Shown one piece after another: positions 13,370-64,000 of a DNA stretch of 64,000 nt. Location: NCBI GenBank assembly GCA_017387685.1, contig JAFOEU010000024.1, forward strand, positions 29,800-93,799, in the 5' to 3' direction. A program made the position numbers and the translations under genes. Numbering within the stretch: the first letter of the stretch is position 1; each line of letters starts with the position of its first letter. The notes under the pieces were generated by a model. It was not told the origin of the DNA. It saw only the letters and a list, made by a program, of their open reading frames with translations, and did no database searches. Source of the DNA: Clostridia bacterium (lineage in GTDB: Bacteria > Bacillota > Clostridia > Oscillospirales > CAG-272).

Positions 13370-13460
13370 TGAAATACATGAAAAAGGCAAACCTTTCGAA
13401 AGGGGGGACGCAAAGCTACGGGGCCTAAGGTATTAAATTACCTTTTGTCCAAAGAATAAT
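13370..13460 (+). promoter_or_regulatory. c-di-GMP-I (GEMM-I) riboswitch aptamer
   Basis: AGGCAAACCTTTCGAAAGGGGGGACGCAAAGCTACGGGGCCTAAGG matches the conserved GEMM-I core (GGCAAACC..GAAA..GGACGCAAAGC..CGG.GCCUAA, as in V. cholerae Vc2). The following AAGGTA-TTAAAT-TACCTT helix fits the P3 (third helix) position. Confidence 0.7.
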
Positions 13461-13469
13461 TTAATACTA

Positions 13470-13500
13470 TGGCAGCCCGGCTGCCAGTGTTTTGTTCTCT
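13470..13500 (+). terminator. Candidate riboswitch expression-platform terminator
   Basis: TGGCAGC-CCG-GCTGCCA followed by GTGTTTTGTTCTCTTTT, about 30 nt before the RBS of the adhesin gene. Confidence 0.5.
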
Positions 13501-17205: not shown

Positions 17206-17281
17206 TGGTCGAAGTGACAGGACTCGAACCTGCAGCATCGTGCTCCCAAAGCACGCGCGCTACCAATTGCGCCACACCTCG
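17206..17281 (-). tRNA. tRNA-Pro (anticodon UGG), CCA encoded
   Basis: The reverse complement reads CGAGGTG-TG-GCGCAATTGGTAGCGC-G-CGTGC-TTTGGGA-GCACG-ATGCT-GCAGG-TTCGAGT-CCTGT-CACTTCG-A-CCA. This is a full cloverleaf with anticodon loop T-T-TGG-G-A. Confidence 0.88.
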
Positions 17282-49440: not shown

Positions 49441-49825
49441 TGATTAAGGTAAATTTCCGCCGAAAGGCGGAAATTTTCTTTTTATTTTATTTGGCGCGCC
49501 CTTCGGGCGCGGGGGGACATAGCACAATCCTTCCCTACATTCGGGAAGGATTGACTATGTCCAAAATCGAGAAGCAAAGCTTCACGATTTTGAAGCGCGG
49601 TGGCGAGACCTGAAGGTCTCGCATTAAATCGAGACGCTGTCTCGAGCTCTGCAACCTTTTAAAAAAGGTTGACCAAAAATTTCCGCGGGAGTTATTTTTA
49701 AAAATCGAAAATTTCCGAGCCACGCGAGGAAATTAACCTTCATTTTGCCGAAGGCAAATTATCACTCTCGCAAAGCGAGATTATCACTCCGCCGAAGGCG
49801 GATTATCATTCGCGCGAAGCGCGAC
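49441..49825. repeat. 385-bp non-coding region made of at least 12 consecutive hairpins, ending in a 22-nt mini-hairpin unit array
   Basis: AAATTTCCGCC/gaaa/GGCGGAAATTT plus a T tract serves as the terminator of the + gene. Further hairpins are GGCGCGCCC/ttc/GGGCGCG, a long stem at 49516-49561, AAAATCGAGAAGC/aaa/GCTTCACGATTTT, GCGAGACC/tgaa/GGTCTCGC, TCGAGAC/gctg/TCTCGA and CAACCTTTT/AAAAGGTTG. The array at 49745-49823 then has four hairpins separated by ATTATCAYT. Confidence 0.8.
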
Positions 49826-52666: not shown

Positions 52667-52714
52667 TGTTAGATCCTTTCTCATTTATAAGTACATATTG
52701 ATTTTGCTTGCGGT

Positions 52715-53053
52715 AACCCGAAGTTGCGCGGGCTTCTTCCACCGCTTCCGCGGTCCCCCTCCCTCCCGGAGAGAGGCTAAGGAGCATCTGCAGACTCCTA
52801 TGGATATTCAGACGAATATTATTCAGATATATAGTTTTGTATAGCAAATAGGAATATTTTTATTAAAATAATTATGCACTCGTAATGGCGCACTATCTTT
52901 TAATAAAGTATTCCTCTATTGACCTAAACAAAATTAAAGATGATAACAAAGTACGGTGCAGAAAAGAACGAGTTTGCACTAACCCAGCCTCCCTCCGGGA
53001 GGGAGGGAGGGGGACCACGGAAGTGGTGGAAGGAGCCCGCGCAACTTCGGATT
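52715..53053. repeat. Long GC-rich inverted repeat (about 64/68 bp arms) flanking a ~205-bp AT-rich core
   Basis: The left arm is CCGAAGTTGCGCGGGCTTCTTCCACCGCTTCCGCGGTCCCCCTCCCTCCCGGAGAGAGGCT. The reverse complement of the right arm is CCGAAGTTGCGCGGGCTCCTTCCACCACTTCCGTGGTCCCCCTCCCTCCCTCCCGGAGGGAGGCT. Confidence 0.85.
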
Positions 53054-53090
53054 TTTTGCAATTTGTATCCAGTGATATATCAGATAATCA

Positions 53091-53378
53091 TTATGCCTTC
53101 TTCCGTAAAACCCAAGAGCCGTCACGTTTTTCCGCGCATTCACCGCGCTTCAAATCAGCAAATTTTGCGGCTGATTTATCGATTTCAAGCATCTCCGCCA
53201 ATGAAACTATTCTTGCTTCATCCTCGGTATGATTTTTGCCGCACAGAAATTGCCAACATCCGTCTTCGTCGTGGGAAATATACGCTATCGGCTCGTTGTC
53301 ATTCAAGATATGGCAACATGTGAAGCACATTGTATTCGGTGCGTCGGGGAACGGGAACTTCCTTTTAAACAGCTTCAT
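53091..53378 (-). CDS. Small DUF2185-like protein
   Basis: 95 aa. It has the pattern C..CCHIL......I.YISHDEDGCWQFLCG, resembling DUF2185. Its stop abuts the SDR gene unit. Confidence 0.45.
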   Translation of the reverse strand: MKLFKRKFPFPDAPNTMCFTCCHILNDNEPIAYISHDEDGCWQFLCGKNHTEDEARIVSLAEMLEIDKSAAKFADLKRGECAEKRDGSWVLRKKA

Positions 53379-58603: not shown

Positions 58604-58636
58604 AAGTTCGATCGCCGTTTTCGCAAAATAATAATT

Positions 58637-58664
58637 GGGGCAGATCCAAGCTTGGATCTGCCCC
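58637..58664. terminator. Bidirectional terminator (perfect 14-bp palindrome)
   Basis: GGGGCAGATCCAAG/CTTGGATCTGCCCC flanked by AT-rich tracts, between convergent genes. Confidence 0.7.
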
Positions 58665-58672
58665 ATATTTAA

Positions 58673-60172
58673 TTATTTAAGATTATCAAATCCTGCGTTA
58701 ATGTCTGTAATTTTTCTGTTGAGATTTTTCTCAAACGCCTTCTGCTGAGAAATGTAAGAGCCTGCGGTATTACCGTTGACTGCGTTACGGAAGATGCTGT
58801 AGGACATCTTATCGAGCTGAGTGGTGAAAAGTCTTGCGATATCGATCTCAACACCGTCGCGGATGAGGTCGAACATGAAGGAGTCATCACTCTGATCTGC
58901 GTATCTCATCTTCATAGACTCCTCGAAGAGTGCGGGAGTTACGTTGAGATAGCTCTGATATGCCATAAGCTCGATAGTTGCAGCTGCAGCCTCGGGATTG
59001 TTTGCAGCTGTCGAAAGCATATACATGGTGTAGCCAAAGCCGAGGCAAGTGCGGTAATGATCCTGATCCTTATCGTACTTCGGAATGGGAAGGATACCGA
59101 AGTTGAAGTCGATATCGGTAAGGCTTCTGGTGATGATGTAAGGACGGTCAACGATGAGGAGGGCGTTGCCCGCTGCAAAGATGGGCTCGCTCTTCTTGAT
59201 ATAAGCGTTGCCGGAAACGTGAAGGAGGTTGCAAAGCTTTTCGAGCAAGTCAACTGTCTTCTGAGAGAAGAGGTCGGGGGACAGAACGAGGTCACCGTCG
59301 GAATTTACGTCAACGGTGGTAAGACCCGAGCCTGCATAGAAGGGGTCGAAATGCACGTTGGTAACAACTGCACCGTAGCGGTCGCCCTCGGAAGCGACAT
59401 TATCGCCATCCTGCTCGAGATATACGCTGTCAGTAAACTCAATGAACTTATCGAGAGTCCACTCACCGTTATATGCGAGCTCGTAGAGTGCATCCGCGCC
59501 AATATTGTGAATATTGGTAAGCATATCCTTGTTAAACATAACGAGGTACATCATATGGATGAAGTTTGTGGAAATATCACCCGATGCAAAATAAATACCG
59601 TCGCGGATGGTAGCCTTGGAAATAAGGCTCTTGGGCCACCAGGGCTTGTCAAATTCCATAATTTCATAATCAGTAAGATTCTGAGTTACGCCGCGAGTCA
59701 TAAGGGTTGCACCCGTCATAGAGTAGCCGCAGAAGAGATCGTGCGCATCCGCGCCCGCCTGAGTGCTGTTAACGCATACGTTGACGAATGAGCCCATATC
59801 GGAGTTATCGCCGGGAGTTCCGGTGAACTCAAGCTCAACGCCGAACTGCTCCTGAATCTTTGCGTTTCTTCTGTAGATCGCATCATTAACGGCTTCACCC
59901 GTCTGTGCATCAGCGAAGAACTCGAGGTTCGGAACGTCGTCCCAATAGAGGATCTTGACAGTAGTGCCGTCAAATCTGAGATCCTCGGGAATGTCGCTCT
60001 TTGCGAAAAGGGTTTCCTCTGCGGTAGTTTCCGCCGCGCCGCTGTCGGGAGCTTCGGTTGCCGCAGGCGCTGTTGTCTCGCCCGTCGAGCCGGTTTCGGC
60101 GCAGGAAAGAACCATAGGAAGCGTCATCGCGAGAATAAGGATCGCGACGATGATGCGGGAAATGTTTTTCAT
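58673..60172 (-). CDS. Extracellular solute-binding lipoprotein (LplA-like SBP family), paralog 6
   Basis: Lipobox MVLSC. Motifs include FDKPWWPKSL, FASGDISTN and GILPIPKYDKDQDHY. ATG 60172 is preferred over GTG 60175. Confidence 0.7.
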   Translation of the reverse strand: MKNISRIIVAILILAMTLPMVLSCAETGSTGETTAPAATEAPDSGAAETTAEETLFAKSDIPEDLRFDGTTVKILYWDDVPNLEFFADAQTGEAVNDAIYRRNAKIQEQFGVELEFTGTPGDNSDMGSFVNVCVNSTQAGADAHDLFCGYSMTGATLMTRGVTQNLTDYEIMEFDKPWWPKSLISKATIRDGIYFASGDISTNFIHMMYLVMFNKDMLTNIHNIGADALYELAYNGEWTLDKFIEFTDSVYLEQDGDNVASEGDRYGAVVTNVHFDPFYAGSGLTTVDVNSDGDLVLSPDLFSQKTVDLLEKLCNLLHVSGNAYIKKSEPIFAAGNALLIVDRPYIITRSLTDIDFNFGILPIPKYDKDQDHYRTCLGFGYTMYMLSTAANNPEAAAATIELMAYQSYLNVTPALFEESMKMRYADQSDDSFMFDLIRDGVEIDIARLFTTQLDKMSYSIFRNAVNGNTAGSYISQQKAFEKNLNRKITDINAGFDNLK

Positions 60173-63682: not shown

Positions 63683-64000
63683 CAATACAGACTCCGATCT
63701 CCTCATCCACCACTGCCGTGGTCCCCCTTCCCCGCTGGGGAAGGCTTGTTTAGCAAGCGCGAACATTAGTGACAGCGATATAGTTGCGCGAAAATGCTTG
63801 CAAAATGCCAGAGAATTATATTACTCGTCTTATAACTTACTTTAAAATATCATGACAAGAGTTTCTCGTTTTCACAAACAATTTCCTATGGTGAAACCGA
63901 TTAACGATATTTAGAAACATCAAGCGAGACTATAAATAAGCCTTCCCCAGCGGGGAAGGTGGCAGCCGAAGGCTGACGGATGAGGAGATCGGAGTCTGTA
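63683..64000. repeat. Second long inverted-repeat element (62-63 bp arms, ~190-bp AT-rich core), reaching the window edge
   Basis: The left arm is TACAGACTCCGATCTCCTCATCC-ACCACTGCCGTGGTCC-CCTTCCCCGCTGGGGAAGGCTT. The reverse complement of the right arm is TACAGACTCCGATCTCCTCATCC-GTCAGCCTTCGGCTGCCA-CCTTCCCCGCTGGGGAAGGCTT. Confidence 0.8.

Follow-up and report, generated by a model that had tools for sequence, protein, structure and literature searches.

What is the long palindromic element that separates two genes of an uncultured Clostridia bacterium, and how would a sequence of this kind spread? The element was found at positions 52715-53053 of a stretch of 64,000 nucleotides, hereafter the window (C11:29800-93799, on contig JAFOEU010000024.1 of assembly GCA_017387685.1), and its source genome, G000, has 2.58 Mb and is 85% complete. 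The initial annotation had described two GC-rich inverted arms around an AT-rich core, directly upstream of a gene resembling those of glycoside hydrolases (GH), and had offered three explanations: an invertible promoter segment (inverton), an insertion resembling a MITE (a miniature transposable element with inverted repeats), or a long-stem structured RNA. We put at about 0.6 the probability that the element is a genus-restricted, non-coding palindromic mosaic repeat, similar to repetitive extragenic palindromic (REP) sequences and MITEs, non-autonomous and possibly serviced by nucleases of the DUF559 family. It probably does not serve the GH gene as a dedicated promoter switch between on and off states.

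A family of palindromic repeats at gene ends

The inverted-repeat search of the window recovered arms of 53 nt with 92% complementarity (52715-52767 and 53001-53053) and a second register with 95% complementarity (52757-52778 and 52986-53007), shifted by a 4-nt GGGA indel. Because this indel offsets the second register from the first, the arms are ~65 nt long, which is the length given in the initial annotation together with the single 4-nt indel. Two other descriptions were also correct: the mini-hairpins of the two arms (hp1 in Table 1, both read on the + strand) differ by changes compensated within each hairpin, and the core is AT-rich, with a GC content of 0.25-0.26 vs ~0.5 in the flanks and 0.50 genome-wide. 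We can add that the whole 339 nt, core included, form an imperfect palindrome with 70% identity to its own reverse complement, and that the alignment to full-length members of the family presented below widens the element to ~52680-53082. The element does lie between two genes, as first proposed, but its extent is wider than described: it overlaps the ribosome-binding site (RBS) of the GH gene on one side, and on the other it is separated from the stop codon of a 95-aa gene by ~9 nt.

The search for other genomic copies that the initial annotation had suggested revealed four full copies in G000, the studied one (C11), C43, and the two copies of contig C48 (C48a and C48b), and up to ~20 in its relatives. 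The other three copies of G000 are 73-81% identical to the C11 copy, and the core is as conserved as the arms. Matches to this family (family 1) were found in 22 of the 36 other genomes of the genus vs 1 of 24 that represent different families within the order. The number of distinct places per genome ranges from 0 to ~20 across the genus (~20 in G036, 9 in G002, and 7 in G034). The orthologous loci belong to an uncultured Clostridia/Eubacteriales lineage from the guts of yak, goat, sheep, and deer. Copies are often located at contig ends, and the Logan contigs of this strain break inside the arms, which makes them uninformative on orientation.

A canonical copy has ~450 nt and begins with an outer stem (GGGGCTGGCTCATT), which leads through a linker and an arm to an AT-rich quasi-palindromic core of ~212 nt, followed by the mirror image. 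The two linkers are unequal, one being short and the other exceeding it by ~45 nt. Each arm is made of a segment (GAAGTTGCGCGGGCTCC), of hp1 (ACCRC-loop-GYGGT), and of a palindromic hairpin, hp2 (CCTCCCTCC-GGAGGGAGG). The core has two diverged halves, P with the hairpin GATATTC-AGC-GAATATC and Q with the block TATAATTTTGCATAC, and between them lie an internal repeat (AAGGAATATTTTATT) and the apex (TTTGCACTCGTAATAGAG). The studied copy lacks the outer stems and the extra linker, and is an old, slightly truncated member of the family. A sister family (family 2) of like design has a different outer stem (TACAGACTCCGATCTCCTCATCC) and a different core, with at least 10 copies in G000. The modules hp1 and hp2 are common to, and swapped among, families 1, 2, and others, and the two arms of one family-2 element can bear different hp1 modules. 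A 22-mer taken from the arms (CCACCACTTCCGTGGTCCCCCT) occurs 3 times in the window at ≤3 mismatches, when 0.00 occurrences are expected, the third one being at position 63707. A scan of JGI metagenomes with a 24-mer specific to the locus gave no match; the same scan with the hp2-hp1 motif returned 23 contigs, mostly of other mosaic families that share the hairpin modules.

The copies are concentrated at the ends of genes. We counted placement on the 33 copies with both flanks called, which are not all independent, and found 31 of them at a gene 3' end, 16 with convergent and 15 with tandem neighbours, and the other 2 between a divergent pair of genes. Under random placement among intergenic classes, the probability of observing two or fewer divergent placements is 0.005. 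The short-linker side often begins within ~10 nt of a stop codon.

The comparison of filled and empty sites reveals what the elements replace. Over 451 nt, C48a and C48b share 95% identity, and C48b is missing from G029, where its flanks are 94% and 84% identical, which makes C48b a recent gain. The empty site of G029 (...GCTTGAAG(CACGGCGTAATGCCGTG)CTTCGGTTTTTATCC) is an ordinary terminator, the filled site of G000 reads ...GCTTGAAG(GGGCTGGCTCATT...AATGAGCCAGCCC)CTTCGGTTTTTATCC, and the junction is exact (in short, GAAG(CACGGCGTAATGCCGTG)CTTCGGTTTTT in G029 vs GAAG(element)CTTCGGTTTTT in G000). At the C48a site, G029 has a terminator (GCGGATGTCT..AGACATCCGTTTATT) in the place of the element. 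Four more clear sites are empty in G000 and filled in a relative (L039, L047, L051, and L042), and two others fit the same replacement pattern: L049, with one junction aligned, and L044, where G000 has a terminator and a hairpin array. The clear cases, at least six filled/empty comparisons, agree: the element has taken the place of a unique GC hairpin, and the A-tract and T-tract on either side of it were kept. The initial annotation had also proposed to look for empty sites and target-site duplications. The at least six empty sites of these pairs provide the former, and no duplication was found at any filled/empty junction pair, the flanks being inverted (stem remnants, A/T tracts), not direct. 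Canonical copies have a GC outer stem and a T-tract inherited from the replaced terminator. The studied copy has a run of six U after the hairpin on the + strand alone (53052-57), not in the direction of the operon. Losses occur as well: a metagenome-assembled genome (MAG) from goat keeps the synteny of the 95-aa and GH genes, and all that remains of the element is ...GCCGAAG followed by GAGCCCGCGCAAC..., a remnant of the kind expected if slippage took place between the GAAG repeats that lie at the palindrome's base.

The predicted structures are very stable. The studied element folds at -184 and -182 kcal/mol on its two strands (z = -17 and -14 vs shuffles), and the canonical copy C48b, where a U-run comes after the base stem, at -248 kcal/mol (z = -26). 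What is conserved in them is local pairing. At the polymorphic fourth pair of hp1, all 56 arms of 28 elements are Watson-Crick paired within the arm itself. The two arms share the same hp1 allele in 16 of the 28 elements (0.52 expected for independent arms), and in 15 of them the arms are complementary at a polymorphic dinucleotide of the outer-stem segment. The hp1 stems that were lengthened by paired insertions still pair (ACCGTCG/CGACGGT, ACCACAC/GTGTGGT, ACCGAC/GTCGGT), and a single mismatch is present among the 61 distinct hp1 variant strings listed (182 matches). The small hairpins in series, as formed in single-stranded DNA or RNA, are what is maintained; a perfect long duplex is not.

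Some further observations concern related sequences. Homology of the family-2 copy that runs past the end of the window (63686-64000) extends outward through linkers (ATTTTATTAAAAAA..TACGCTTGTCTTTTCTGCAG) and a hairpin module (GAAAATTTTCGCC-TTC-GGCGAAAATT). At positions 58605-58737 of the window (C11:88404-88536), there is a simple terminator (GGGGCAGATCCAAGCTTGGATCTGCCCC), and G004 (L061) has there a family-1-like element of its own subtype. Tandem arrays of units of 22-24 nt occur at L145 (G029:C28, ~2400-2480), at 49441-49825 of the window, and at C1:25180-25529 of G000. Their unit is made of a constant linker (GATGATATAC or ATTATCAC), a variable self-complementary stem, and a TTCG/GAAG loop. 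One such array has five units in G029 vs one in G000, and at one site the hairpin array of G000 sits where G034 has a family-1 element.

DUF559 nuclease genes beside the repeats

The profile search of G000 for DUF559 gave four matches (C43, C97, C106, and C83). The gene on C43 (119 aa) is intact and starts ~60 nt from the family-1 copy, and the one on C97 (125 aa) is also intact, with a stop codon that touches the linker of a family-2 copy. The match on C106 is a pseudogene (L201, 880-1320; start MIYKYDKAL, premature stop, internal deletion) placed between two outward-facing family-2 arms, and the one on C83 is a fragment. The proteins of 119-125 aa match the Pfam DUF559 profile at an E-value of 1e-28, and their nearest solved structure, 3hrl, is that of a DUF559 protein.

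Repeats and nuclease genes tend to be found in the same genomes and next to each other. Among 38 genomes of the genus, 20 have both, 4 have arms only, 1 has only a DUF559 fragment, and 13 have neither (Fisher P = 5e-6, uncorrected for phylogeny). Half of the DUF559 genes (15 of 30) have an hp2-type hairpin within 200 nt, vs a background of 1 per 70 kb, and, by inspection, ~22 of the 30 have some GC hairpin arm right after the stop codon. The nucleases of clade d1 pair with family 1 and those of clade d2 with family 2. A DUF559 gene is likewise accompanied by repeats in two further families of this order (G048 and G059) and, by eye, in the JGI contig L175. A homing endonuclease of a group I intron is among the members of the Vsr/DUF559 group within the PD-(D/E)XK superfamily (PMC3424549), and a DUF559 protein of Caulobacter has been proposed to act like Vsr (PMC12907096).

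We made a few side observations on these arrangements. The locus of the C106 pseudogene continues into tandem partial arms. An intact DUF559 gene of G048 lies inside the same hp2-hp1-GGAGG...CCTCC-hp1-hp2 frame as this pseudogene, and three JGI contigs (L187, L188, and L193) have this frame with a spacer of a mere 35-45 nt.

Possible origins of the element

We interpret the elements as non-autonomous DNA that would be spread or maintained in trans, with the DUF559 nuclease as the best candidate for this activity. By analogy with REP and REPIN sequences, DUF559 would fill the role of the RAYT transposases, perhaps by cutting hairpin or cruciform DNA in such a way that repair copies the element in. 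Once transcribed, a copy may fold into a giant hairpin and retain the function of a terminator or an insulator, and at C11 the element would uncouple the GH gene from the upstream sugar-acid genes. A more specific version of this interpretation, which we propose only tentatively and hold to be doubtful, is a partnership of the REPIN/RAYT type in which another enzyme takes part. Extruded hairpins and cruciforms, be they repeat arms or ordinary terminators, would be recognised and cut by the nuclease, and repair templated by the element through the A/T tracts would swap the terminator for the 450-nt element, a process one could call structure-targeted homing; cuts of this kind between the long arms would also invert the core. 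If true, this would be an undescribed route for the spread of non-coding DNA in bacteria, and it would provide the first function for stand-alone DUF559 proteins.

Several points weigh against the interpretation of a repeat serviced by DUF559. The link with these genes is correlational, and the compared genomes are kin. G059, which is outside the genus, has DUF559 without family-1 matches, though a family-2-type arm follows the gene. Causality could also be reversed, with a selfish nuclease gene landing beside repeats, and we know of no transposition or repeat-maintenance activity of DUF559. Neither a transposase nor an insertion sequence (IS) with matching ends was found in G000. Inversions of the core are recurrent (see below), GH transcription must come through or from the element, which may thus have a promoter role, and a purely selfish repeat explains neither the conserved asymmetry of P and Q, with a TATAAT-containing block in the latter, nor the well-conserved apex. 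Finally, terminator function of the C11 copy is doubtful, because it lacks both the outer stem and a U-run after the hairpin in the direction of the operon.

Among the explanations first offered, the MITE-like insertion comes closest, but terminator hairpins are replaced and target-site duplications are lacking. In the classical form of this explanation, the element would be the deletion derivative of an unseen IS, moved through its terminal inverted repeats by the DDE or HUH transposase of this IS, and the adjacency of DUF559 genes would be incidental. The family is indeed small in size, non-coding, bounded by terminal inverted repeats, and present in many dispersed copies that are polymorphic for presence and patchily distributed, with bursts such as that of G036. 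Furthermore, MAGs usually lose IS copies and G000 is incomplete (85%). However, a profile search of G000 found no Y1_Tnp (PF01797) transposase, the comparison of this genome with itself found no long IS-like repeat with matching ends, and the collections of plasmids and phages had no match to the element. The flanks of the junctions are inverted, not direct, the swapping out of the target hairpin is unlike cut-and-paste insertion, and the adjacency of DUF559 is far above chance. We thus regard a classical MITE as unlikely. According to the inverton explanation, a trans-acting site-specific recombinase would flip the core at the arms, and its orientation would set the expression of the adjacent gene, here GH, through an asymmetry of promoter or terminator between P and Q. 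As a corollary, the family would be a regulon of switches, comparable to those of Mpi in Bacteroides and RecV in C. difficile. The part of this proposal that stands is the inversion of the core between orthologues lying upstream of the same gene. Taking GH as the reference, the P half is beside it in G000 and G029 and the Q half in G036, while G034 is Q-type on both sides; the core has thus flipped in place at this locus, with a conversion in addition. Relative to the short and long linkers, both orientations are seen (7 vs 5 copies), including two cores of G036 that are ~95% identical, by eye, and in opposite orientation (L058 vs L059), and family-2 cores are likewise flipped relative to arms bearing different hp1 modules. 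The conserved asymmetry of P and Q, the contact between the element and the RBS of the GH gene, and the 7 serine and 6 tyrosine recombinases encoded in G000, one of which is small (184 aa), also favour a switch. As a function of the family, however, it is not supported. The 16 copies between convergent genes have nothing for a promoter to drive, and a consensus scan detected no sigma-70-like promoter in the canonical copy and 2 such sites in the C11 copy, when 1.6 are expected in either. By reading, the best -35-like hexamer is 19-20 nt away from the TATAAT of the Q half. The arms, of 65-110 nt, are far above the length of known recombinase sites, and none of the 13 recombinase genes of G000 is within 5 kb of any copy, though one of them might act in trans. 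The initial annotation had stated that the window has no recombinase or transposase gene, and this holds for the families searched, since Resolvase, Phage_integrase, Y1_Tnp, and DUF559 were unmatched on contig C11. Two other orthologous loci are collinear (C43 in four species and C48a in two), and the assemblies of this strain, two of the C11 locus and three of C48b, are all in the orientation of the window. The many dispersed copies, 4 here and up to ~20 in relatives, are what the initial annotation had named as evidence against an inverton. Hybrid cores, e.g., the C11 type with a left half that is P-proximal and Q-distal, point to exchanges at varying positions, and together with the Q/Q core they suggest homology-driven exchange, not fixed crossover sites. 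We therefore consider the inverton quite unlikely; the simplest account of the core flips is that they are a by-product of recombination or template switching between long inverted arms, not a programmed promoter switch.

The element could also be primarily an RNA element, i.e., a giant cis hairpin acting as a terminator, an mRNA stabiliser, an RNase III site between cistrons, or the carrier of a small RNA at the apex, under selection at the RNA level and with dispersal as a secondary trait. The extreme folding energy on both strands is in line with this possibility, as are the position directly after stop codons, the retention of A/T tracts as in bidirectional terminators, and the loops, often UUCG- or GNRA-like. 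Within the core, conservation is highest at the apex and the internal inverted repeats, after which comes a T-run. Yet the element matches no Rfam family: the search with Rfam 15 gave at most matches resembling miRNA precursors (66 bits vs a gathering score of 230), which we judged spurious, there was nothing relevant on the JGI contigs with related modules, and Gut-1 had no match on the element, these contigs, or the window. Folding has no strand asymmetry, and a test of G:U vs A:C changes is powerless because the element is palindromic and found in both orientations. The long pairing between arms is not kept (15/28 and 16/28, see above), and recent gain at new sites and the link with nuclease genes are properties of DNA. 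Hence, an element selected primarily as RNA seems improbable. The long stem of the initial annotation may exist as a consequence at the level of the transcript, but covariation backs the small local hairpins, not a stem between the arms. Three other candidates were dropped without a dedicated search: a retron non-coding RNA, given the many copies and no reverse transcriptase, an integron attC site, on the basis of size, and a type I toxin or small open reading frame (ORF) in the core, given that no ORF is conserved.

The repeats serviced in trans that we favour are closest in kind to REP/BIME/REPIN sequences and to hairpin-forming MITEs, and are thus not categorically new. Like the REP/BIME/REPIN sequences and their RAYT, they are extragenic, with a concentration at gene 3' ends and in the gaps of convergent pairs, are built of small GC-rich imperfect palindromes in mosaics and inverted pairs whose hairpins are kept by compensatory change, make no target-site duplication, and are accompanied by a small nuclease gene, in single or low copy, flanked by cognate repeats, with a matching of clades to families. 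They differ in their partner, which is here a PD-(D/E)XK nuclease of the Vsr fold (DUF559), with no Y1 HUH transposase found; in their unit, here of 340-450 nt with a conserved AT-rich core of 212 nt; in copy number, tens instead of hundreds; and in their host, Clostridia, whereas the known systems are mainly from Proteobacteria. Hairpin MITEs, such as Correia/NEMIS of Neisseria, RUP and BOX of pneumococcus, and ERIC, are also non-coding, dispersed, and intergenic, with terminal inverted repeats, are often co-transcribed, and can act as terminators, promoters, or RNase III substrates. However, they have a target-site duplication (TA for Correia) and a link to an IS transposase; the elements described here have neither, replace the target hairpin, and are 3-4 times larger.

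The known invertons (fimS, the Mpi-dependent promoters of Bacteroides, and the RecV switches of C. difficile) have in common with the element inverted repeats around ~200 bp upstream of a gene, both orientations among relatives, and related repeats at several loci. Yet, they have repeats of 10-45 bp, a promoter, an upstream position, and an identified invertase, whereas here the arms have 65-110 nt, the canonical copy has no detectable promoter, gene ends lie on both sides of half of the copies, and there is no linked invertase. The Vsr-fold (EDxHD) homing endonuclease I-Bth0305I and the Vsr-like DUF559 protein VsrA of Caulobacter (PMC3424549; PMC12907096) place DUF559 in a fold group that includes a homing nuclease of mobile DNA. 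In the case of I-Bth0305I, the comparison has its limits: there is here no intron or intein context, and homing targets a homologous empty allele, not unrelated terminators.

Other mobile elements prefer terminators or palindromes as landing sites, notably IS1397 and ISKpn1 (REP loops) and class C group II introns (after terminators). These enter the hairpin or land next to it, and it stays where it was, whereas here the hairpin is gone and the element brings a new stem. To our knowledge, the literature searched has no description of such a large conserved core, of the replacement of terminator hairpins without target-site duplication, or of a Vsr-fold nuclease as the partner of such repeats. 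The precise replacement of terminator hairpins and the clade-matched nuclease provide a testable candidate for the propagation of REP-like repeats in Firmicutes without a partner of the RAYT type. There are also practical consequences for annotation, since these elements create spurious ORFs and break short-read assemblies, and pipelines based on inverted repeats are likely to score them as invertons, though most sit between gene ends and have no detectable promoter.

The C11 locus and its surroundings

The features of the locus are given in Table 1. Homology to the family begins at CTCATTT, around position 52680, in the pairwise alignment to a full-length copy, and 44 nt of the proximal linker are also present at the orthologous copies of G029, G034, and G036. 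The initial annotation saw no credible ORF in the core. Two ORFs do begin in it on the + strand (52885-53232 and 52940-53323), and public assemblies carry a gene call of 115 aa for the former, which starts in the core and was also found at 3922-4269 of L066. This call is almost certainly a spurious ORF made by the repeat, because it crosses the right arm and is in antisense orientation to the 95-aa gene, which is conserved.

Table 1. Features of the element and of its immediate surroundings (positions in the window).
Feature	Position	Strand	Basis and remarks
GH-like gene, 480 aa	51224..52666	-	ORF; immediately downstream of the element
RBS of the GH gene, GAGAAAGG	52675..52682	-	read from the sequence; overlaps the final bases of the element
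Proximal outer linker	52680..52714		family and pairwise alignment; in full-length copies, its homologue is the linker on the short side (CTCATTTA..TTGCTTGCGGTAACC)
Left arm, outer-stem segment, AACCCGAAGTTGCGCGGGCTTCTTCC	52715..52740		inverted repeat; kept in all family copies
Left-arm mini-hairpin hp1, ACCGC-TTCC-GCGGT	52741..52754		sequence; family-wide pairing
Left-arm palindromic hairpin hp2, CCTCCCTCC-C-GGAGAGAGG	52758..52776		repeat search
AT-rich core, diverged palindrome, P-type half left, Q-type half right	52777..52987		GC 0.25; half-core alignments and consensus
Local hairpin of the P half, GATATTCAGACGAATAT	~52803-52819		half-core alignments
Internal inverted repeats of the core	52847-52863 and 52902-52920		repeat search
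Apex of the core, TGCACTCGTAATGG	~52874-52893		half-core consensus
Right-arm hp2, CCTCCCTCC-G-GGAGGGAGG, then 4-nt GGGA duplication	52988..53006		repeat search
Right-arm hp1, ACCAC-GGAA-GTGGT	53014..53027		opposite allele to the left arm, compensated internally
Right arm, outer-stem segment, GGAAGGAGCCCGCGCAACTTCGGATT	53028..53053		inverted repeat
Distal outer linker, truncated homologue of the long-side linker (TTGCAATTTGTATCCAGTGATATATCA)	53054..53082		family and pairwise alignment
95-aa Cys-rich gene (DUF2185-like in the initial annotation)	53091..53378	-	ORF; stop ~9 nt from the element
Family-2 copy (outer stem TACAGACTCCGATCTCCTCATCC, hp1, hp2 CCTTCCCC..GGGGAAGG, AT core)	63686-64000, runs on past the window (C11:93430-93836)		shares the hp1 module with the studied element

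The neighbouring genes have weak similarity to known families. The GH-like gene matches Glyco_hydro_39 at an E-value of 5e-4, below the cut-off, and has orthologues in ~30 Clostridia MAGs. The 95-aa gene matches Imm33 (PF09951) at an E-value of 0.0023, also below the cut-off, and is conserved in G034, G036, and the goat MAG. It is the last gene of a sugar-acid operon, which the element separates from the GH gene. An exact look-up of proteins returned two ENA assemblies of the C11 locus, both identical to the window, and left the 95-aa protein unmatched; the same look-up with the GH proteins of three sister species returned their own MAG alone.

The comparison of species suggests how the locus was assembled. 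The studied element is orthologous in G000, G029, G034, and G036, where both junctions are common. In four other species (L091, L093, L094, and L096), the SDR and GH genes are directly and translationally coupled (GGAGTAAATTATG), and both the 95-aa gene and the element are missing between them; another two species carry, upstream of GH, a family-2 arm. The Imm33-like gene and the repeat represent an insertion specific to this lineage, placed between SDR and GH. The element split a formerly coupled pair of genes, and so probably alters the expression of the glycosidase. In G029, the distal flank was exchanged (L016 / L169, G029:C36), with a DUF559 gene and a gene of 163 aa instead of the SDR and 95-aa genes. 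This DUF559 gene abuts the distal end of the orthologous element and has 82% DNA identity to the DUF559 region of C43, and the distal linker of the element is of the C43 type. This suggests that the flank changed by a rearrangement, through recombination between two copies of the element.

Elsewhere in the window, the Rfam matches at the gathering score are a c-di-GMP-I riboswitch (13376-13488, + strand, 67 bits) and a tRNA (17209-17281, - strand), with no others. In the rest of the genome, five pairs of contigs (C76/C10, C71/C22, C67/C6, C75/C104, and C89/C109) share segments of 0.9-1.5 kb at 89-95% identity, and some of these contigs bear genes of large serine or tyrosine recombinases. They are probably strain variants or mobile elements that were collapsed in the bin.

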